From Dictyostelium discoideum (Eukaryota), in assembly GCA_000004695.1 (NCBI GenBank), contig CM000155.2, positions 1,664,001 to 1,728,000 of the forward strand: a stretch of DNA of 64,000 nucleotides, in the 5' to 3' direction. Each line of letters starts with the position of its first letter. Positions within the stretch are counted from its first letter, which is position 1. The notes beneath the pieces were generated by a model. That model made no database searches and was not told the DNA's origin. It saw only the letters and a list, made by a program, of their open reading frames with translations. Shown here piece after piece: positions 1-42,513 of this stretch. The position numbers and the translations under genes were made by a program.

Positions 1-44
1 TGATATTAAAATGTTAATTTATGGATTTTTTGGTCTTCTAAATA

Positions 45-57
45 GGGAGTCGATCCC
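45..57 (-). promoter_or_regulatory. Candidate external B box (ex-B) about 32 bp downstream of tRNA-Cys (minus-strand GGGATCGACTCCC)
   Basis: 8/11 match to the internal B box GGTTCGAATCC. Dictyostelium tRNA genes often carry a downstream ex-B box (established knowledge). Confidence 0.4.
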
Positions 58-88
58 TTGACCTCAGGTTCACACAACTAAAAATGAA

Positions 89-160
89 AGTTCCGAACCA
101 GGATTGAACTGGCGACCTAACGATTTGCAGTCGCTTGCTCTTCCACTGAGCTATCGAAAC
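89..160 (-). tRNA. tRNA-Cys (anticodon GCA), 72 nt
   Basis: Reverse complement reads GTTTCGATAGCTCAGTGGAAGAGCAAGCGACTGCAAATCGTTAGGTCGCCAGTTCAATCCTGGTTCGGAACT. It has a 7-bp acceptor stem (GTTTCGA/TCGGAAC with one G:T pair), D and T arms, anticodon loop CTGCAAA and a B-box-like GGTTCAATCC... motif (AGTTCAATCCTGG). Confidence 0.85.
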
Positions 161-227
161 TTCTTGAAAAAAAAATTTTTTTTTTCGTATCTGGCGCCGA
201 TTAAAGATAAAAAAAAAATTAACAGAG

Positions 228-2382
228 ATGGAAGACAGAATCGAAGAATATGAGGTTAAGCTAGCAATAGAAAAGATAGCAGAAGGTAAATCACCAGGAG
301 AAGATGGAATAACATCTTCATTCTATAAAATCCACCAACACAAACTAATTCCAATCCTCACAGAACTATTCAACTTCTTTTTAAACAATGAAATTCCAAC
401 AGAATTCAAGAACGGTATCCTTACATCAATATACAAAGGTAAAGGGGATGTCTTGGAAATCTCAAACAGAAGACCAATAACGTTACTCAACGTAGACTAC
501 AAAATCTACTCAAAAATAATCAACAATAGAATACTAAAAATCCTGCCAAACATAATCTCAAAGTACCAGAACGGTTTTATACCAGGAAGGCTACTCCACA
601 ACAACATTATAGCTTTGGATTTAGCAATGGAAAAGAGTGATAGAAACACGATAATCACCTTTTATGACTTCGAAAAAGCCTTCGATTCAATATCTCATAA
701 AGCGTTAATAAGGACTCTAAACCATCTAAAGTTCCCTCGGAAAATAACAAACACAATACTAAGCATGTTAACGAACACCAACATAAGGGTCATGGTAAAT
801 GGACAACTCTCTGAATCCTTCAGAGCAGGAAGAGGTACAAAACAGGGCGACCCAATTTCACCAACTCTCTTCGCTATAGTATGTGAATGCTTATCAACAT
901 CAATAAGAAAAGACAATACCATAATAGGCATAAAACTCAATCAGAACAATTCGATGAAGATTGGACAATATGCAGACGACACAGTCACACTAGCCAGTAA
1001 CATAGATGACGCAGATAAAATGGATATGAAAGTTATAAAATTTTGCCAAGCCACAGCAGCAAAAATAAACGATAATAAATGTGTGTGCATCACTAAAAAC
1101 CCAAAGATAAAGACCAAATATAAGACAATTGGGGCGAAAGAAGAAGAAAGATATCTTGGCTTTTTCTTCAACCGCAAAGGTGTAATAAGCAAAGTAGATG
1201 ATACGGTGAACAAACTGGAAAACCTCACAAAATGCTATTCGAGCGTGTCATCAACGCTAAAAGGTAGAATCACAATCCTCAAATCATACCTGCTGTCCCA
1301 ACTAACATTCCAACTATACATCAACGAAATAAATGACATAAAGAAACTGGAGAACGTTAATGCCAACATGTTATTCAAAGGGGACAGGTGGGCTATCTCA
1401 AAAGAAAGGAGCAGAAGAGACTATGAAATTGGAGGCCTGGAACTCTGGAATATGGCAACCAGATCCAATGCCCAGAAAGCATGGATATACGAACAATACC
1501 TCAGAGAAAAAGACGACCAGAACTGCCCTCCACATATGGAAGTCTGGAAGTCGGAAAAAGAAAACTCACTATCAAGGATTCACATCAAATGCTGGAAAGC
1601 CTGGAAGTTGTTGCACCACCCAAGAGAGCGAATAACTCTCAAACTAAACCAAGTCAAACCCAAATACGAAAACAAACAAAAATTAAAAGTAATCTATAGA
1701 AACATGATGGATATCAAATACAAGGGATGGAACAAACACCAGCCAACAACAGGTCAAAAACTGATTCAAAAGAACATTAATCACCCAATTCTACCATTCA
1801 GAGAAGCCAGATCAATCACAACTATCAAAGGAAGAGACTTAGCATGGAGATATCTACTCAAGGCACTTCCAAAACACCATGGGGAGAATTGCCACTCATG
1901 TAAAGAAGAAGAATCGTCTATGCACATCTTCTTCGAATGCAAATCAATAAAACAGAATATCGACTCAATCTATCAAAAGGTCTGTAAAGACTCCAACAAC
2001 ACTTACCACGGTCCATGGAGCGAAAAAGTTCTCGGAAAACTACTCACACCATTCTCATCAAATCTGATAGGAGCCATTATGGAATCGATATGGTACAGAA
2101 GAAATCAAATAAAATTCAACGATAACACTACAATAATAACAGAGAACCAAATAATTCATAAAATCAAAAAAGCGAGAGATGCCGAATGGGATAGAACAAG
2201 AAAGATAGTAGAAAAACAACTACGTCAAGAACTAAGATGCACTGATAACCGAGAGTCAATCAATCGGACCGCATCAATAAAAAGAAGACTCGAAAAATTC
2301 AGCCACAACTGGAACTCGAAACTCATGACCATAAACATCCCGGAACACTTCATACCATACTGCTCATATAACACCAACTACT

Positions 2383-2387
<5 letters not shown>
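228..2387 (+). CDS. Retrotransposon ORF2 fragment (RT domain + CCHC zinc knuckle); no APE endonuclease domain, so 5'-truncated
   Basis: 719-aa ORF from the track. RT motifs and a CX2CX8HX4C zinc knuckle are present. The ORF begins inside the RT domain. Confidence 0.85.
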
Positions 2388-2421
<34 letters not shown>

Positions 2422-2544
2422 ATAACAATAATAATAATAATAATAATATAATAATAATAATAATATAATAATAATAATATAATAATAATAATAATATAAT
2501 AATAATAATAATAAAAAAAAAAATAAGAATAACAAGAAAAAAAG

Positions 2545-2577
<33 letters not shown>
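2388..2577 (+). repeat. Poly(A) followed by (ATA/TAA)n microsatellite and poly(A): the 3' tail of the retroelement
   Basis: A30 run, then about 100 bp of (taa/ata)n, then A-rich runs ending at 2577. Confidence 0.8.
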
Positions 2578-2579
<2 letters not shown>

Positions 2580-2807
2580 AATTAACTTTCCTGGGACACC
2601 CTCAAATTGAGTGATGTTATTAAAAAAAAAAAAAAGCCGATTAAAAATTTTTTAAATGTTTTTTAATAAATTCTTAAATAATTTATATTATCAGTTTTAT
2701 TAATAGATTTTATGTAACGAAACTTTTTTATTATATATTAAGTTTTGTTATATTATTTTTTTTTTAATTAACATAAAAAACAAAAAAAAAAAAAATTAAA
2801 AAATCGG

Positions 2808-2840
<33 letters not shown>

Positions 2841-2853
2841 CAATTATTTTAAA

Positions 2854-3126
2854 ATGAATAAAATATTAATCAGGAATTTTTGTACAAATATAAAAAATGA
2901 ATCAACAAAACCTTTAATAGATAATATATATAAAAATATATTAAAAGATAATTTTAAAATTGTAGAAATTAAAGACTGTAAAAACAATAGAGGTTTATTT
3001 TATAATCCAATAGAATCACCAACACAAACCTTATCAGTTATAAATCCCAAAACTAATAAACCCAATCTAATCTTTAAAGAAGAACCTTTTATAAGCTATC
3101 CTTCAATTATAAAATCAAATGAAAAT
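2854..3126 (+). CDS. SET and MYND domain (SMYD-like) protein, exon 1
   Basis: ORF ending at a GTGTGT donor. It is followed by a 105-bp AT-rich intron (or 99 bp if the donor is at 3133) ending TATAG at 3231. Frame is preserved into exon 2. Confidence 0.6.
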
Positions 3127-3231
3127 GTGTGTGTGTATTTTTAATAATAAATAATAATTAAAAAGAAAAAAAAAAAAATTAAAACTAAAAAATAATTATA
3201 TATATATATATATATATAAATATATTTATAG

Positions 3232-3990
3232 ATATGTAATCATTGTTTAAAAGAAATTAAAAAAGAAGAAGAAGAAATTAAACAAGAATGTGAAGAATGT
3301 AAAGTTTATAAATATTGTTCAATTGAATGTAAAGAGAAATCATCAATTGAATATCATAGTGTTTTATGTAAATCAACAGGATCAGGATTTAATTATTTAG
3401 AGAAACATGCATCGATAGAGAAGAGGAGATTTCCATTATTAGCAGGTAAAATATTAGCAAGAATGATAATGGGATATCATTTAGAGAAATCATCAAAATC
3501 AACATGGTTACCATTACAAATGTTATCATTTGCAAAGAAACCACCACCATTAGAATGGAAAGATGATTATTTAATTTTCTCAAGATCATTATTAAAAGGT
3601 ATTAATAATGAAAGTATGAAAAAGAAATTCGATTATGATTGGTTCGTTAGAGTAATGCAAATTCTTTACTTGAATACAATTGGTATTGATATTGATCCAA
3701 ATCAACAAAGCACCAAAATGTCATCACCAGAGTCTGGAATTGGTCTTTATTTACTTACATCATTCATCAATCATGATTGTGACCCAAATGCATTCATTCA
3801 TTTCCCTGATGATCATACGATGCATTTATCACCACTTAAACCAATTAATCCAGGTGATGAAATTACAATCTCTTATACTGATACAACAAAAGATTTAGTT
3901 GATAGAAGATCACAATTATTTGAAAATTATGGTTTTAATTGTGAATGTAAAAAATGTTTAAATGATTTATTAATTAAAAGAAATAAATAA
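3232..3990 (+). CDS. SMYD-like protein, exon 2 (MYND zinc finger CNHC...CEEC...YCSIEC...H..C; SET core NHDCDPN; post-SET CECKKC)
   Basis: Translation ICNHCLKEIKKEEEEIKQECEECKVYKYCSIECKEKSSIEYHSVLC ... FINHDCDPNAF ... ENYGFNCECKKC. Confidence 0.7.
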   Translation: MCNHCLKEIKKEEEEIKQECEECKVYKYCSIECKEKSSIEYHSVLCKSTGSGFNYLEKHASIEKRRFPLLAGKILARMIMGYHLEKSSKSTWLPLQMLSFAKKPPPLEWKDDYLIFSRSLLKGINNESMKKKFDYDWFVRVMQILYLNTIGIDIDPNQQSTKMSSPESGIGLYLLTSFINHDCDPNAFIHFPDDHTMHLSPLKPINPGDEITISYTDTTKDLVDRRSQLFENYGFNCECKKCLNDLLIKRNK

Positions 3991-4117
3991 AATAAAATAA
4001 TATTTAAATATATATAAAAAGAAGATAAAATGTTTTTATTTAATAATATTATTTTACCATATGGTGGTGGTAGTGGTGGTGGTGGTGGTGTAATTGTTGT
4101 AATTTTTTTTAAAAATT

Positions 4118-5979
4118 TTAATTTAAATATTTTTTTAACCATAATGAAATATTAACCCATTGATCTAAACGAGCATCAATTGAATCAAGACTATGACCAG
4201 TTTTTGGATACATTAAACATTTTGTTGGTACATCTCTTTCTCTTAACATACGATAATATAATAAACCTTGAGAAGGTGGAACACGAAGATCTGAATCACC
4301 TAAAGCTAATAATGATGGAATTTTGATGTTTTCAATATGGAAACTTGGTGAACATTTTCTCATTTTTTCAATTTCTTCCATTGATGGTAATGTATGATAT
4401 TGAGAGGTTGGATCAGAGAGATTAATACCAGCTTCAAAGAAACACCAATCTGGAATATCGGATAAGGTTGACATTGATGGAATATCGATTACAGGATTTC
4501 TCATGATTGAAGTTTTGACAATTGGGAATCTACTTAGATGTGCTGATAAGAAACCACCATGACTACCACCAATAACACCAATTTTATTTCTATCGATTGT
4601 ATTATCGATTTTATCGAGTGTGTAATTAATTGCTTGAACACAATCGTCAACATCCAAATCACCAATATAACCTGGTAAACAATCTACGAAATCTTTACCA
4701 TAACCTGTTGAACCTCTATAATTTGGAATTATAATATTATAACCCAATGAGAGTAAATAAGTGATTGTTGAAACATAACCAACATCTAAATTTGAATGTG
4801 GACCACCATGAATGAAAACTAAACAACCCAATGGTGAAGATTGTGTACTATTTTTATTCTTTAAGTAAATCAATTCAAATGATTTAATTGACTCTGTGTA
4901 TGGTTGTGGTGTTGGTTTTGATACTGGTACATTATGAATGGTTGCATTAAATGATTTGAAAATTGAATTACATTGTTCACTTGGTTTTGGTGAGTAAATT
5001 AATTGTTTCTCTTTATCACTACCCAAATAATCAACTAAATAAACTTTAGTTGGTTGATTTACTGATGATTCACCAATTAAATATTTCTTTGATTTAAAAT
5101 CAATATCATATAAAACATAAAGTTTTGGTTCTTCGTCACCACCATCAGTTGATGATGGAATTTTAATAATTTTCAATTCCTTTGATTCATAATTAAAAGA
5201 AACAATCATTTCAGTTGATCTAATAATTGTTGAAAATAAAAATGTTTTTTCATCAATAAATGGTCTCTCTGGTAATGATTGACAGAAAACACCTGGGAAT
5301 GAATCATTAAAATTCTTATAATCCAACAATGTTTCAAATGATTGTGGTGGTTGTTGTTGTTGAGTGATATTGTTTGAAGACCAATTTAAAGAGAAAATCT
5401 TTGAACAAGTATCATGAGCATAAATTCTTTCGTTAAAACCCAAGAAAATTAATTTTGAAGAATCTGGTGTAAAACGTGGTGATCTATAACAACCATTATT
5501 ACCATTTGGAATTAAATTTACAATTTGCAATGGTGTTGTTAATTTGGTTTGTTTTGGATCCAATTTTTGGTTCTCTTTCCATTGATTTCTAGCATTAATA
5601 AACTCTTTGAAATTTAAATGATACAATGAACTTGATCTATTGAAACATGCTCTAATACCAAGTTTTCTTTTACCAAAATTCCAACCAACATAAACTAATC
5701 CCTCACCATTTGGTGTCCAAATGACTTGACCTGCTGATATCTTTTCAGATGGGAATGGTTCAACTGGGAATACAACCTCCTTTTCAATATCTAATATAAA
5801 TATTGATGGATTTGCAACTGGTGAATAAGTTTCACCCCAATCATCTCTAAATACAAATTGATCACCAATAGCTTTATCTTTTGGTTCCTTATCAAAAAAT
5901 CCTGTTACATTTAATTTTGAATCTGCAATAAATGCTACATATTTCTCACATGGTGACCATGAAAAACTACCAAACCATT
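4118..5979 (-). CDS. Acylamino-acid-releasing enzyme / acylaminoacyl peptidase (S9C prolyl oligopeptidase family), exon 2
   Basis: GFSWSPCEKYVAFIA, GDQFVF..DWGE, GGPHS, YRGSTGYG and GGSHGG (catalytic Ser motif) align along the length with APEH. The N-terminal MEFLLILFIFFFFKKKK of the tracked ORF is read-through of the intron. Confidence 0.8.
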
Positions 5980-6506: not shown

Positions 6507-7354
6507 CTTTTATGTCTCTTTTTGAAAAAAAATTAAAAAAATAAAAAAAATTAAAAAAATTAAAAAATTAATTTAAACCACCACTTATTAAAAAAAAAAA
6601 ATAAAAAAAATAAAAAATTAAAAAAAAATAAAAATAAATTAAATTGCGAACTTAAAAAAAAAAATTCTCACACAAACTACCTTTCATAATTTTTTTTTTT
6701 TTTTTTTTTTTTTGTCAATAAATTAATCAATTAAAGATCTTTGATTTAACTCATATTTTTTTTTTAAAAAAAATAATAAAAAATAAAATTTAATAATTGT
6801 TTTAAAGGGAATGAAAAACAAATTAAAAAAATTTTTTTTTTTTTTATAAAAAAAAGTGTAAAATCTGAATATTTTTTGTTTAATATCAATAAAAAAAGTA
6901 AAAAAAAAAAAAAATGATTTTCCAAAAAAAATTAGAAAAAAGAAATTTATTAAATGTTAGGGTTAGTTATTTTTTTTCCCCCTCCCGAAAAATTTTAATA
7001 TTTTTAATAATAAAAAAAAAAAAATATGGGTTTTTTTTTCCCGTCCATTATCATATTTGCATCATTTTTTTTTTTTTTTATTTTTTATTTAATTTTTAAT
7101 TTATTTTTTGAGTCAATCCTGAAAAAAAAACCAAAAAAAAAAAAACCAAAAAAAGAAATTAAAAAAAAAAAAAAAAAAAAAAAAACAGTGTTTATATTCT
7201 TTTGATGGTAACCGAAAGAAATCAAAATAACATATAGTTGAAACATAAACTCTTACAATTCTTTAAAAATAATAATAACCCCAAAAAAAATAAAAAAAAT
7301 TAAAAAAATTAAAAAAAAAATAAAAAAAAAAAAAAAAAATAAAAAAATAAAAAA

Positions 7355-9121
7355 ATGATCAGAAACTTAATCAAAACAAAAACAAAAATAAATGAAATTA
7401 AATTTAATAGGAATTTTTTATCAAGTTCAATATTAAAAATAAGAAATCATAATGATGATAGTAATAATATATTATTTTCAAATTCAAATACCATTGAAAT
7501 TCAAAATCTCCCATTAAATATAACAACAACTGATCTATTGAATCAATTTAAAAATTATAAAATATCACCACATGGAATTAAAACAAAATATAATACAGAT
7601 AAAGGATTTGCTTATATTACCTTTGAAAATAATCAAGATTTTATGAAAGCAATAGACAAGAAATTAATTTCATTCAATAATTTAAATTATTCAATTGAAC
7701 CAATTAAACAATCATTATCATCCTTATTATTATCATCATCATCAAATGAAGAAGAAGAAGTAACAACAACAACTAGTGAAACTATAAATACAAAAGTTGT
7801 TCAACACGAAAATGTAAATATAATATCATCATTAAATTCAAATCATTATAATCATTCAATATCGTATCCAAATCAGTCAGCTATTACTCAACAATTATGG
7901 TTTGCAAGAGTTAGTAAAGAAGTTAATCCAGCAATAACTGAAGCACCAAAGTTAACAACAAAAACACCAGAAGAGAGTAAAGTTGAGGTGATTTTACCAT
8001 TTAGTAGTGATTTACAATTACGTGAAAATTATTTATCCCCATATGGTAATTTAAGAATCGGTAGATTCTTGGAAGATTTAGATGCAATTGCTACAGCTGT
8101 AGCTTTTAAACATGGTGAGAATGAGAATGACGGTTATAAGAAAATGTTTGTAACTGTATCAGTTGATACAATTAAAATTCTTAGACCCTTAATTCCAGAT
8201 AGGGATATTAAAATGGAGGCTAAATTATCATGGGTTGGTAATAGTTCAATGGAGATCATGATTAGAGTTTTCTCAAAAGATAATGACAAAACTCAACAAT
8301 GGGATCCTGTCCTAGTCGCATTCTTTACAATGGTTGGTGTAGATCCAAAAACAATGAAACCAACACTTATCAACTCATTAAAAGTTGAAACTCCAACAGA
8401 GAGGAGACTATTCGCTGAAGGTGAACAACATAAATTACAACGTTTAAATTCAAATCAGCAATCACTTGAAAAATTACCACCAACTCCAACTGAATTACAA
8501 ACTATTCATAATCTATTCATGATTTCAAAACAACAACACCAATCATCAGATGTTGTTGATAGAAATTTCATTCCAATGAATTCAACAAGTTTAGAAACTG
8601 TTATTTTATGTCAACCTCAAGAAAAGAATATTAACGGTCAAATTTTTGGTGGTTATTTAATGAGAATGGCATTTGAAACTGCTTATACAACTTGTTTTAT
8701 GAAGTTTCCAGAATCATTACCAAGATTTAGAAGTATTAGTGGTTTGAAATTCCTTAAACCTGTTGAAATTGGTGATATTCTTAATATGGAATCAACCATT
8801 ACCTACTCAAAGCCAATGAACTCTGAAGATGATTGTGAAAATCAAACTTATTATACTCAAGTAGAAGTTTTAGCCTATGTCACCGACCCTTCCATTGGTG
8901 AAAAAAAACTTTCAAATGTTTTTAATTTCACTTTTTATTGTGCTCCTTCAAAATCTCAAAAAGAAAAATTACAACAACAAAATACAAACAAAAAATTAAA
9001 ACAAATTTTACCTCAAACTTATTCCGAAGCAATGCGTTATTTAACTGGAAAAAGAATTATTGATAGTTATATAGAATTTGATCAATCACCTTCTAAAATG
9101 GATATTTTTAAAAATGAATAA
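7355..9121 (+). CDS. Acyl-CoA thioesterase (ACOT9-like, tandem hotdog domains) with an N-terminal presequence-like region and an RRM-like segment
   Basis: ILCQPQEKNINGQIFGGYLMRMAFETAYTTC and RIGRFLEDLDAIATAVAF match the two hotdog folds of ACOT9/10. The N-terminal ...IEIQNLP...KGFAYITFENNQDFMKAI looks like RNP2/RNP1. Confidence 0.7.
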   Translation: MIRNLIKTKTKINEIKFNRNFLSSSILKIRNHNDDSNNILFSNSNTIEIQNLPLNITTTDLLNQFKNYKISPHGIKTKYNTDKGFAYITFENNQDFMKAIDKKLISFNNLNYSIEPIKQSLSSLLLSSSSNEEEEVTTTTSETINTKVVQHENVNIISSLNSNHYNHSISYPNQSAITQQLWFARVSKEVNPAITEAPKLTTKTPEESKVEVILPFSSDLQLRENYLSPYGNLRIGRFLEDLDAIATAVAFKHGENENDGYKKMFVTVSVDTIKILRPLIPDRDIKMEAKLSWVGNSSMEIMIRVFSKDNDKTQQWDPVLVAFFTMVGVDPKTMKPTLINSLKVETPTERRLFAEGEQHKLQRLNSNQQSLEKLPPTPTELQTIHNLFMISKQQHQSSDVVDRNFIPMNSTSLETVILCQPQEKNINGQIFGGYLMRMAFETAYTTCFMKFPESLPRFRSISGLKFLKPVEIGDILNMESTITYSKPMNSEDDCENQTYYTQVEVLAYVTDPSIGEKKLSNVFNFTFYCAPSKSQKEKLQQQNTNKKLKQILPQTYSEAMRYLTGKRIIDSYIEFDQSPSKMDIFKNE

Positions 9122-35684: not shown

Positions 35685-36548
35685 TTAATAATTAATTGGT
35701 GGTGTAATTGTTGGAATTGGTTCATTTGTGTTTATGCTCCATTCTTTTTTAAATTTTTTGATGGTTTCGGACCATTGGGTTTCTTTTTGAGTTTTTGTGA
35801 GGTTGTTTTTAATTGAGTATTGGTTAAAGTTTGATAATGTTCTTGAATATTCCAATCTTATTAGCTTGTGCCATTTTGATTTTAATATATCATAATCTAG
35901 TGTTATGTTGTTTATTTGGTTGTTCCAATTGTCAATTGATTGAGTTATATTGATGTCAAATAATGATTTGCATAACCATATCCATATTTGGTGAATAACT
36001 AATGAGATTATGTTCCAATATGCATGTGTTCTGACTAGATCAAGATTTGTGTTTATATAATTCCAGTTGAACCTGTATTTTTTATATTGTGCGTTTTCTG
36101 CAAAATGAAAATTAATATTGATAGTTGGATCTGGTTTAAATGCTTTGTTGTTTGTTTGTGGTTTATCAATGAGTGTGTATAATTTTGTTGTTTGGTTTTT
36201 TGTTAGTGACCAGTTTTTGTTTCCATTGCAATTTTTATATATAAAATATTTTAATTTGTCGTGGTTTATGAAGTTGATTGTGTGCTGACAATTGAAAAAC
36301 AAATGACCATAGGGATCATTATTCATTTCATTGTTGCAAATGGGGCAAACTTTGTTGTGTAGATGATTAATCGGAAGACATCTAGCATGGAATCTTTGCT
36401 TGTATAACGGCCTTTTGGATCTTTTAATTTTTGAATTTTGACAAATAGTTGGTCGTATGTGTATTTCCATAATAGTTGTATTGATTGTTGGTGCGAAGTA
36501 AGAAGTAGATCTGAATATTTCTTGCCAACATAGTCTTTTGATTTGCAT
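35685..36548 (-). pseudogene. Retroelement ORF2 remnant, C-terminal part, in a different frame from the RT part
   Basis: HARCLPINHLHNKVCPICNNEMNNDPYGHLFFNC aligns with the zinc-knuckle region of the first element. It overlaps the upstream frame by about 225 nt. Confidence 0.65.
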
Positions 36549-37988
36549 TGGTGATTGTTGAGTATTGTCGAGTAGATTTCTTTGAGTGTTGGTGGTAGTG
36601 AAATATTATTTGTGGTTAATGTTTGAGAGGTTTGGTTTTTTGTTAATATTGGTTGTAGGGTTTGAACTTTATCTTTTAGATGTCCAATTTGAGTTGCATA
36701 GTTTTCCCATTCTTTTTTGATTTTTATCAGGTATGGAGAAGAGATTGATTTGTTGATGATTTGATCCATCCAACTTATCATGTATATTGAGTTATTTGCA
36801 GATTTATGCATTTGTAAAAATCTGTTGTATATCCATATCTTTTGAGCAACTTGTCGTAATTGTATATTCCACATACCCCAACCACCTTCTTTTAATGGTT
36901 TTAATGATATATCATAACACATCAAAGGTATTTTTGCACGTGAATGGATGGTTGATGTGTTGTTTTCAATGGAATTGGTATTGAGAGTTGGTGATTCAGA
37001 ATTTGAGGGAGAATTCATAAACCATGAGATTAATTTATTAATTTGAATTTCTTCATCTTTTGTAAATTCTTCAAGGTATGATAAATATGTTATTGGTGAT
37101 AGTGAGTAGGTGTTTATTATGGTTGTTTTTGTTTTTAATGTTGTGCCACTAGTTTTCCATAGTACTAATGATTTGATCAGTGTTTTCATTGTTTCTGGTA
37201 ATTTCCTATGTAAACCATTATGATTAAAGAAATAGCCAAGAACTCTTTCTGATTGATCTTTTTTGGTTATTGGTATTCTTTTTGATTGTGGAATGTTGTT
37301 TATTATGTGTTTATCAGTGATTTTGTGGGGGTTGATTTCTATTATTGCACTTTTGTTAAAATTTAATGATGATGATGTTGAAGAGCAGAAATTATCGAAA
37401 TGTTTGATTGATTGTTGTTGTTGTTGTTCGTAGTTGATGTTGTATGTTGTAGAGTCGTCTGCAAATTGGGTAAATTTGATTTTAATTTGTGGATTGGGTG
37501 AAATTGGTAATCCAATTATTGTATTGTCTGCATATATTGTTCTAGCTAATATTTCAATTACAATTACAAATAAAGTGGCTGAGATTGGGTCACCTTGTTT
37601 TACACCTCTTTTAATATCGAATTTTCTGGTCGTTTTACCATTAATTGAAATTTTTGCTTGTGAGTCAGATAATAGCTTGTGGATTAAATTTATTAATTTT
37701 ATTGGTATACCAATATTAATTAATGTTCTTTTAATACTATCGTGAGAGATAGAATCAAATGCTTTAAAGAAGTCAAATAGTGTGATGATACCAGGGAGGT
37801 TTTTAGATTTGAGGTAATTGATTAATTCATTGATGTTGATGATGTTGTCTATGATGAATCTGTGGGGTACGAAACCAGTTTGGTTGTTGTTGATAATGAA
37901 AGGAAGTATTCTCAGAAGACGTGCATTGAATACTTTTGAGAGGATCTTGTAATCAGTGTTTAGAAGTGTAATGGGACGACGATTTGAT
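36323..37988 (-). pseudogene. Retroelement ORF2 remnant, RT part. Open from the truncation point to a stop at 36323
   Basis: Continuous minus-strand frame ...LNNLSNRRPITLL...GDPISATLFVIVIE...FADDSTTY...GGWGMWNIQLRQVAQKIWIY...ATMK*. Confidence 0.7.
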
Positions 37989-38997: not shown

Positions 38998-39118
38998 TGG
39001 ATTAACAAGATTGATATATCTACCTATTTTTGATTGTTTCGGACCATTGGGTTTCTTTTTGAGTTTTTGTGAGGTTGTTTTTAATTGAGTATTGGTTAAA
39101 GTTTGATAGTGTTCTTGA

Positions 39119-39123
<5 letters not shown>
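38751..39123 (-). mobile_element. 3'-terminal fragment of the same TRE3-type element (about 350 bp with a 70-bp insertion), near-identical to 35573-35870
   Basis: Direct repeat of the 3' module: ttttgatataaataaactattgtagtatacaattagtatg...gagtattggttaaagtttgata(a/g)tgttcttgaatatt, preceded by T22. It is followed by further oligo(T) runs, each of which reads ataatc(A)n on the minus strand. Confidence 0.7.
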
Positions 39124-39244: not shown

Positions 39245-39274
39245 ATTATAAACAAAAGATTTTAAAAAAAAATT

Positions 39275-39347
39275 CGCCCAAAGGGGGGCTCGAACCCCCG
39301 ACCACAAGGTTAAAAGCCTTGCGCTCTACCGACTGAGCTATCTGGGC
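39275..39347 (-). tRNA. tRNA-Lys (anticodon UUU), 73 nt
   Basis: Reverse complement GCCCAGATAGCTCAGTCGGTAGAGCGCAAGGCTTTTAACCTTGTGGTCGGGGGTTCGAGCCCCCCTTTGGGCG. Acceptor stem GCCCAGA/TTTGGGC, anticodon loop CTTTTAA and B box GGTTCGAGCCC. Confidence 0.85.
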
Positions 39348-40174
39348 ATTTTATTAGAATTATTTTCTTAATATAAGATTTTATAGAGTATATATATAAT
39401 ATAACTAGTATCTCAAAGCAATTAAAAATATCAAATTGTTGGTATTGAGTTATTAAAAAGAATCGTGTTATTTATTTCTTCGTTTTAATTTATCATTCTG
39501 TTATACAATAAGTTAATTTGTAAAGTAAATTTATTTAGGGTGTAATCAAATTTAAAAAATATAAAAAAATAAATGAAAAAAAAAAAAAAAAAAAGTGAAC
39601 TTTTGGGTAAAACGTACGTTAAACATTACAAGGGTTACAACAAAATGACCCTATATAGATTTTTATTTTTTTTTATTTTTTTTGAATTTTTTTTTAAATT
39701 TTTTTTTTGAATTTTTTTTTTTTAATTTTATTTTTAAATTAAATTTGATACCAAAGATAAACAAATGAGCTGTTTAAAAAAAAAAAATAAAAATAAAAAT
39801 AAAAAAAAAAATAAAAATAAAAAATAACTAATAAATTTCAAACAGAAATAATAACAATAATAATAATCTAGATTTATTATAAAAATTAAGAAATCCTATT
39901 AATAATAATAAATAAAATTTTTTTTTTATTTTTTTTTTTTTGTTTTGGTTGTCCCCCTTTTTAATTCATTGTTAATTTTTTATTTATTTATTTTCTATTT
40001 ATTTTTTATTTTTTTATTTTTTTTTTTTGTTCACTTAAATATATTTATATATATATAATAATTATTGAATAAATAAAAAAAAAAAGGCGGGTTGGGTGAA
40101 CAAAAAAAAAAAAAAAAAAATTATTTATTTAATTATTTATTTAATTTTAATTTAAAAAAAAAAAAAAAAAAAAA

Positions 40175-40318: not shown

Positions 40319-42513
40319 AAAATTGTTTAAGTTCAACCAATTTTATGCCAACATTGGCAGTTGAAAGAAGGTCAACATTATTTATAGGTAATTTAACAAT
40401 AGAATCATCAGAAAGGGATTTAACTATAGGGTTATTACCAGGTACAGGTAATAATTTTGAATGGTTAGTTTTTAAAGATGGATTTAGTTTAATGGAAGGA
40501 AGGAGAGTTCAATCAGATGAATCGAATGATGCATTAAAATTTCAATGTGTTACAAGCTATGATAGTGGAATTTATTATTTCAAACAAAACGACCCAACAA
40601 ACACAGGTTACAATATAGAAACGGAAAGATTCATATTAAATGTCATTGGTAATGATACGGAAACATTGGTAATGATTAGAGAACCATCATCAATAGTTAT
40701 GTCTGGTACATCATTTTCAGTACAACCAGTGATTGGATTTGGAAGAGCGAAATTACCAACATGGAAAGGTGAATCCCGAGGAAGAATTGAACCAGTGATA
40801 TTGGAAAGTCCATCCAACGGGAAGAACATGCATTTTCTACTACAATTTAGAGGTGTCGATATAGATTTGGAGAGAAAAGAGACGACATTCAATACGCTCT
40901 CTCTAATTGGTGAGCCTGGAGTATATAGAATTGGATTCATTGATACCGATACATGTGAAATGTATAAATCAACAATGGAAATCACAGTTATTGGTACATT
41001 GAATTCGCTTTACTTTGAATGGTCATTGTCAGCATTCATAGTGTTATTAATAATCATAGTATCATTGGTAATCAATTTCATAGCAAAACATAAGGTGAAA
41101 TCAAAAGGATTCCTATCATTGAAGATGGCATTCCTCACACCAATGGAAAGTATATACAAATTCAAAGGTGAATCGATTAGATTCTACTTTAAATCACAAA
41201 GATTATTAGTATTCCAATGTTTATTCTTTACTTTTATCAGTTTGGTATTGTTCATACCAGTCACAGTGAAAGGTGATAACAAATTCCGAGACATGATACT
41301 ATTGTCACAAGCCAATTGGAATGCAAATTCACCATTTCTATTCTTTTATCAAGTGCAAGTGTTTTTATTATTCTGTTCATTAATAATTTGTTATACAAGA
41401 TTCAATGATGAAAGAATATATCTTTCACATGATAGTAATCATTTGGTAACATCAAGAAGTGTATTATTGACAGGCTTACCAAGATCATTGACCAATGTTC
41501 AAATGTTGAAAGATTTCCTTCAAACTGGTTATTCAAATGGTGTTTATTCAGTCTCAATCATTCTTATTAAAATATTTTCACAATCAGATAAAGATAACGA
41601 TTTAAATGGTAGATTGGAACATATCTATGTCGATCCAAATACTGATATAAATCAATTACCATCAGAATTGAAAGTTGAATCAACTGGTAAAGCATTTATA
41701 ACATTTTCATGTGTATCGGATGCTCATTTATTTACAAATCAATTCTCATCATACAAATGGACAAAATCATTAATTAAACGTATCACTCAACCAGTTATAC
41801 CTCAAGAGTATCGTACTGAATTGGGTACTGATAATTGGAGGGCCCACCCTGCACCAAGAGTATCCGATATACTTTGGACAAAGTTACATGACCCTGCAAA
41901 TTTTAGAAATGTTGGTTGGACAATACTACAAATGATTGGTATAACATTCTTCTTTTTGGTGATTGTATTCTTTGCCATCATCTTTTACGAAACTCAATTC
42001 TCAATCATTGACACAATTTCACCCATAGATTATGGTACCAAACAAGCCATGCTCGTTAGTTTAACCTCTTATTTAGCCTATTACTTTTGTCCAAGCATTA
42101 TTCTAATGGGTTTAAATCATTCATTACCCGGTATTATTAGATTCATTCTAATGCGATCAAATAATTATGTTAGAAGCTTTTCAAAGAGTAAAGTCATGTT
42201 AATCACCTTTATAGCTCAATCATTAATCATCGTTATTTTCCCATCTGCTTATTTCTTAATCAATGTTAATCCAGATTCCGATCATGTTTCAAATCAAAAT
42301 CTATTCTTAGTACCAATTAAATTCTTACGTAGAGGTGGTTCATTCTATATTCATTTCATTACTATATTCGCTATGTTAACTCCATTCTTAGAATTATCAA
42401 ATCTTTCCGATATAGTTTATAAAATTTTATTTCATAGAAATTTAAAAACTGAAGAAATCTTTAGTTTTGAACCTTTAAATTTAAAAAAACAATATTTAAA
42501 TTCATTATTATTA
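40319..42513 (+). CDS. OSCA/TMEM63-like channel, exon 2 (about 220-aa N-terminal ectodomain, TM helices, cytosolic RRM-like domain, pore-region TMs)
   Basis: AFITFSCVSDAHLFTNQF and WRAHPAPRVSDILWTKL match OSCA/CSC1 cytosolic-domain signatures. Multiple TM segments are present. Confidence 0.7.

Follow-up and report, generated by a model that had tools for sequence, protein, structure and literature searches.

TRE5-B is reportedly an L1-like retroelement of Dictyostelium discoideum that is targeted to tRNA genes, a description said to go back to Glockner et al. 2001. Relative to the mature tRNA sequence, elements of the TRE5 family are oppositely oriented and lie ~44-54 bp upstream (PMC5911963), and for TRE5-A a distance of 47 ± 3 bp has been measured, with the element's 5' end invariably pointing toward that of the tRNA (PMC5391098). 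In this study, we analyzed 64,000 nucleotides of D. discoideum DNA (contig CM000155.2, positions 1,664,001 to 1,728,000; the whole stretch is called the window below), near the start of which a 5'-truncated retrotransposon of the non-long terminal repeat (non-LTR) type lies beside a tRNA-Cys(GCA) gene. Our reading, to which we give a probability of about 0.9, is that a TRE5-family element, most likely TRE5-B, inserted once 44 bp upstream of this tRNA gene, with the two 5' ends facing each other. The window is AT-rich (G+C outside the element is ~20-30%), and its proteins match D. discoideum. The locus offers a clean textbook case of how, in a genome dense with genes, TRE5 elements find a safe place to land at tRNA genes; the finding is an instance of already known, well-described biology in a reference genome, and its value lies mainly in annotation.

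Boundaries of the element and its distance to the tRNA gene

The limits of the element were set by alignment to full-length copies, and the boundary reference was L001 2175..8420, a full-length copy in which a 5' module of ~197 bp is duplicated and which also has ORF2 and an ORF1 of 451 aa (L numbers denote loci fetched for comparison). By this alignment the element spans 205..2635 on the plus strand (2,431 bp). Homology to L001 begins exactly at window position 205, with 205..2409 corresponding to L001 5254..7457 at 99.7% identity (6 mismatches in 2,205 nt); the match resumes at 2427 and stops at 2635, the 3' end of the element. The 3' untranslated region (UTR) of L001 is longer by ~755 bp; this is an insertion into L001 that does not belong to the element, because a further copy, L003, is contiguous with window 211..2635 (99.2%). 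A perfect target-site duplication of 9 bp, GCCGATTAA, brackets the element; one copy adjoins the first element base at 205 (196..204, plus strand), and the other follows the tail (2636..2644, plus strand), a junction that is the same in a second assembly (L002). This sequence occurs just twice in the window, where 0.10 occurrences would be expected by chance. The 3' UTR (2388..2621, plus strand) is made up of an A run (2388-2419), a TAA-type microsatellite, an A-rich run whose last base is 2577, and a unique segment of 44 nt (2578-2621), and a terminal oligo(A) tail of 14 A can be read in the sequence after it (2622..2635, plus strand). The same layout is common to L001, L003, L013, L014, L015, and L017, and these six copies share with the window a terminal segment of ~46 nt (...CTCAAATTGAGTGATGTTATT); the terminal A run measures 12-15 in the other copies, and L015 has a single A. 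The window copy has lost the 5' UTR and ORF1, and ORF2 up to residue ~331, a stretch that would include the endonuclease region. The hallmarks of a non-LTR insertion are thus all present, namely the A14 tail, the 9-bp duplication, and truncation at ORF2 residue ~331.

A first-pass annotation of the window had called a 5'-truncated TRE5-type element beside a tRNA gene, and the position, orientation, non-LTR hallmarks, and ORF2 homology fit that call. It had placed the element at 205-2577; the start is confirmed by the onset of homology, but the end has to be moved to 2635, since 2577 marks the end of an internal A run. A search for a duplication flanking 205 and 2577, which had been suggested as a check, would fail because 2577 is internal to the 3' UTR and all related copies continue past it, whereas the pair 205/2635 yields GCCGATTAA at both junctions. 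These corrected boundaries (205-2635, with the duplication GCCGATTAA) should be useful in repeat masking. The proposed tRNA-Cys(GCA) gene at 89..160 was borne out on the minus strand by a full-length Rfam match (RF00005, 61.4 bits, with 29 as the gathering score), and ARAGORN agrees, calling 88..161 on the minus strand with anticodon gca. The element runs on the opposite, plus strand, and its truncated 5' end at 205 faces the 5' end of the tRNA gene with 44 bp between them (161..204), or 45 bp if the ambiguous A205 is assigned to the duplication. The gap had been put at ~48 bp; that value is superseded, but 44 bp still falls within the 44-54 bp range of TRE5 elements (PMC5911963).

The same geometry recurs at related loci. 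Intervening distances are 45 bp at tRNA-Ala (L001, where the element starts 45-46 bp upstream), 44 bp at tRNA-Val(UAC) (L014), 45 bp at tRNA-Lys(UUU) (L015), 39-40 bp at tRNA-Asp (L017), and 45 bp at tRNA-Thr (L018, a member of a 77% subfamily). Two copies of a sister family behave alike, one lying 45 bp from tRNA-Leu(UAA) (L012) and one ~43 bp from a degenerate tRNA-Ala-like sequence that receives no ARAGORN call (L016). Head-to-head placement 39-45 bp upstream was therefore found at all seven other loci with a tRNA gene or tRNA-like sequence in reach, each of which carries its own 9-14-bp duplication. L013 was excluded from this survey of distances; an LTR-type element with reverse transcriptase, RNase H, and integrase domains intervenes there, and no tRNA gene is in reach. 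The tRNA association is a property of the element family and not a coincidence at the window locus. We also observed that the TRE5-A copies L005, L009, and L010 start ~47-54 bp from the tRNA 5' end, compared with 39-45 bp for the TRE5-B-like clade. A small systematic offset between the two subfamilies is possible, the sample being small.

The A tail, the target-site duplication, and the 5' truncation are those of a single insertion, which would have proceeded through target-primed reverse transcription. In the literature on TRE5-A and TRE5-B, from which the targeting, nicking, and priming steps are taken (PMC3159450, PMC5391098, PMC5911963), the pre-integration complex would be placed by the ORF1 protein binding TFIIIB subunits on the tRNA gene. 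An endonuclease would then nick the DNA ~45-50 bp upstream of the TFIIIB-bound tRNA gene, and reverse transcription, primed on the A tail, would stop early and leave a 5'-truncated copy. To the right of the element, the next gene is a SET-domain gene that starts at 2854, with a tRNA-to-gene interval of 2.7 kb. The element's position in this interval fits the safe-haven picture.

Subfamily assignment and rival explanations

To place the element within TRE5, a TRE5-A reference was rebuilt from the published module anatomy, and the subfamily was then assigned by exclusion. Elements of the P0149 type (L004-L011) are TRE5-A, as they have tandem ~200-bp A-modules, a duplicated B-module, and a terminal C-module. 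In L005, which starts 48 bp upstream of tRNA-Val(AAC), the B-module lies both across the 5' UTR and ORF1 start and in the 3' UTR (2236-2586 = 7132-7482, 98%). The ORF1 of P0149-type elements has isoleucine at position 10, the residue stated for TRE5-A (PMC3159450). Compared with this reference, the window ORF2 shows 44% identity to P0149, the ORF2 of TRE5-A, and 43-47% across related TRE5-A-like families (43-44% for P0006, a D. cf. discoideum relative of P0149), while three TRE3-like families reach 34-39%. When the B-module and C-module defined in L005 were compared with window 2381-2700, matches were found in A runs only, and the C-module is absent from the 3' end of all seven copies of the window family. 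TRE5-B and TRE5-C lack a 3' B-module; a C-module terminates TRE5-A and TRE5-C but not TRE5-B (PMC3159450). With neither a C-module nor a 3' B-module, the window element would therefore be TRE5-B by the published criteria.

A comparison with TRE5-B by description revealed no differing feature. Both have an ORF2 with a reverse transcriptase and a zinc finger, both sit ~45 bp upstream in head-to-head orientation without a 3' B-module or C-module, and the relatives of the window element have an ORF1 without detected similarity to that of TRE5-A; the window copy measures 2.43 kb against ~5.4-5.5 kb at full length. An intact TRE5-B ORF1 has been cloned by the Winckler laboratory (PMC3159450), and the window family includes full-length copies with an intact ORF1 of 451-454 aa. 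That the element belongs to TRE5 we regard as nearly certain. Its assignment to TRE5-B, which is drawn from the missing modules and from exclusion, is probable at a clearly lower level of confidence.

Several points weigh against this reading of the locus. The TFIIIB targeting would be carried over to the window locus purely from the literature, and the 44-bp gap stands at the short edge of the 47 ± 3 bp measured for TRE5-A. The most likely subfamily was named from absent modules and by exclusion, and a sister family, the P0012/P0004 type, likewise lacks the C-module, which leaves some doubt as to whether the name TRE5-B was first given to this sister family or to the window family. The sister family is 50-54% identical to the full-length ORF2 and 54-57% identical to the window ORF; the P0012 type was seen in D. 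discoideum as truncated fragments only, and L016 is a full-length sister-family element in D. cf. discoideum. No contig position was found for P0127. Two non-A families without a C-module in D. discoideum assemblies (the window type and, at 54%, the P0012 type) would leave room for the window element to be TRE5-C or an unnamed TRE5 subfamily. We consider this unlikely, given that no copy of the window family ends in a C-module and that the intact ORF1 cloned for TRE5-B (PMC3159450) has a counterpart in the window family, the P0012 type having been seen in D. discoideum as fragments. A truncated copy of TRE5-A (DRE), the abundant, active, and best-studied TRE5 family, would have the same position and orientation as the window element. 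TRE5-A also shares the targeting geometry and the ORF2 domain order, and its A-module is visibly homologous to the 5' A-module of the full-length relative L001. The rest of the comparison nevertheless sets the two apart: ORF2 is just 44% identical to P0149, and where the 3' end of TRE5-A carries the second copy of its B-module and a C-module of 134-137 bp, the window type has neither and ends in a 44-46-nt segment with a predicted hairpin fold. In addition, BLASTP of the L001 ORF1 against the TRE5-A ORF1 gave no significant alignment, a result that is compatible with the published 25% identity and by itself uninformative. We judge a TRE5-A origin to be extremely improbable. The element shares its superfamily and tRNA-gene targeting with TRE3, and differs in lying upstream of the tRNA gene in opposite orientation. 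TRE3 elements sit 40-150 bp downstream of a tRNA gene and share its orientation, a placement that was not found here; ARAGORN called no tRNA gene to the right of the element.

The remaining alternative concerns the number of insertions. Window positions 2578-2602 differ from every other copy at 6 positions, and the first eight bases of this patch (2578-2585, CCAATTAA) resemble the target-site duplication. One could thus picture an older, tiny 3' fragment (2578-2635) joined by a younger insertion (205-2577) primed on the internal A run, and this family does provide genuine cases of tandem insertion at one tRNA gene (L012, L015). The same locus in assembly GCA_054883475.1 (L002), which is 99.6% identical over window 1..5403, speaks against such a history. 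L002 carries a canonical, contiguous tail, ACAAATAAACTCTCCTGGAACACACTC, that equals the family consensus and has no inner duplication. All five mismatches between the window and L002 over 5.4 kb fall within the 25-nt patch 2578-2602, immediately behind an A run exceeding 30 nt. The source assembly of the window most likely has a base-calling error here, or a patch private to its strain. On these grounds a second micro-insertion was rejected, and we give it hardly any weight beside the single insertion of a TRE5-B-like element. The insertion is a fixed, already sequenced feature of D. discoideum, because an identical ORF is present in strain AX4 and the same locus is found in GCA_054883475.1.

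The ORF2 remnant annotated as DDB_G0292452

The coding part of the element is an ORF2 remnant (210..2387, plus strand) that equals residues 332-1056 of P0001, a full-length ORF2 of 1056 aa from recent D. discoideum assemblies, at 100% identity by tblastn. From the first ATG at 228, a single long open frame (228..2387) encodes 719 aa, all 719 of which are identical to DDB_G0292452 (XP_629628.1) of D. discoideum AX4. The intact reverse transcriptase frame and the zinc knuckle named in the first-pass annotation were both upheld. The frame is open and, from 210, identical to the full-length ORF2; the reverse transcriptase domain lies at 459..1163 on the plus strand (Pfam RVT_1, E=1.6e-37, ORF residues 78-312), and a CCHC zinc knuckle (C-HS-C-x7-H-x4-C, that is, C-x2-C-x7-H-x4-C) can be read off the translation at 1890..1940 on the same strand. 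Fragments of this ORF2 family bear the UniRef name 'reverse transcriptase zinc-binding domain-containing protein'. In the N-terminal region of full-length P0001, the match to Exo_endo_phos is weak and below threshold (17.3 bits against a cut-off of 24.5).

DDB_G0292452 is listed as a 'hypothetical protein', and a literature search for this identifier returned no match. Rather than a host gene, it is what remains of a retrotransposon ORF2. Lacking a promoter module, ORF1, and the endonuclease, the window copy would be a dead remnant that cannot move on its own; its lack of autonomy follows from the missing ORF1 and endonuclease region. The insertion is young, since it is 99.7% identical to full-length copies, and the open frame is explained by this youth alone, being expected given the identity to active copies. 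It is conceivable that read-through or a cryptic promoter leads to transcription of DDB_G0292452, and that it supplies reverse transcriptase in trans or has been co-opted, which would make it more than a young dead copy. This idea finds no support here, and we consider it highly doubtful.

tRNA gene features, TRE3-like remnants, and related copies

The internal B box of the tRNA-Cys gene (101..116, minus strand) matches the published consensus used for the scan, GTCnnnnGTTCRAnYC, exactly. D. discoideum tRNA genes are known to have an external B box (ex-B), which has been reported for ~80% of them (PMC5911963). The ex-B candidate that had been flagged downstream of the tRNA gene, GTCAAGGGATCGACTC (47..62, minus strand), has 1 mismatch to the consensus and lies 25-26 nt beyond the 3' end of the gene. 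Among the 16 tRNA genes in the window and the fetched loci, 10, including tRNA-Cys, have a B-box-like motif with at most 2 mismatches at an offset of 22-26 nt. The identification of GTCAAGGGATCGACTC as an ex-B box is supported by its position. Throughout the 64-kb window, only four matches have at most 1 mismatch, and the internal B box of each of the two tRNA genes accounts for one of these. Another B-box-like sequence, ATCACTGGTTCAATTC (40784-40799, minus strand, 1 mismatch), occurs within coding-like sequence 1.4 kb from the second tRNA gene; it was set aside and is probably a chance match.

This second tRNA gene of the window is a tRNA-Lys(UUU) gene (39274-39348, minus strand), next to which we noted TRE3-like ORF2 remnants of the P0041 type, one of the three TRE3-like families compared above (35736-37987 and 39029-39121, both minus strand; 86-99% amino-acid identity) in a copy that looks fragmented. 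The remnants are found on the downstream side of the tRNA-Lys gene and are oriented for transcription in the same direction, which is the TRE3 arrangement and the mirror of the TRE5 case.

Directly before the A tail, a hairpin is kept across the clade (window 2596-2621, L001 8379-8405, L012 6562-6590, L016 7623-7648, L018 ~7090-7120). Its z scores are -3.05 in L001, -4.16 in L012, and -2.19 in L016, and it is weakened in the window (0.10). In L018 the stem has undergone a double change (CACUC/GAGUG to CACCC/GGGUG), and the sequences are too few for a real covariation test. As a predicted fold, the pre-tail hairpin may correspond to the essential stem-loop of the C-module of TRE5-A.

Some of the related copies carry inserts of their own. 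The ~755-bp sequence in L001 is an element with terminal inverted repeats (CACAGCGAAGAAAAA ... TTTTTCTTTGCTGTG) that also occurs in L017 and L018 (L001 7468-8222, L017 ~7656-8415, L018 ~2126-2878). Three TRE5-B copies acquired it independently, each at a different site (the 3' UTR, ORF2, and ORF1). It has an apparent 2-bp AA duplication and contains a tRNA-like piece with the B-box-like sequence GGGGGATCGAATCCC. It may be a non-autonomous DNA transposon that prefers this retroelement. A different insert, with terminal inverted repeats of ~37 bp, is present in L016 (6935-7520) in the 3' UTR just past the ORF2 stop codon.

In L012 (6591-6775) and L015 (3862-3960), a TRE5-B-like copy is followed by a duplication copy and then by a solo C-module fragment that is ~89-91% identical to the TRE5-A C-module, and in L012 a further duplication copy comes after the C-module fragment. 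Each of these arrangements looks like the outcome of insertions that came one after another at a single tRNA gene, and the younger element would be the one nearer the gene.

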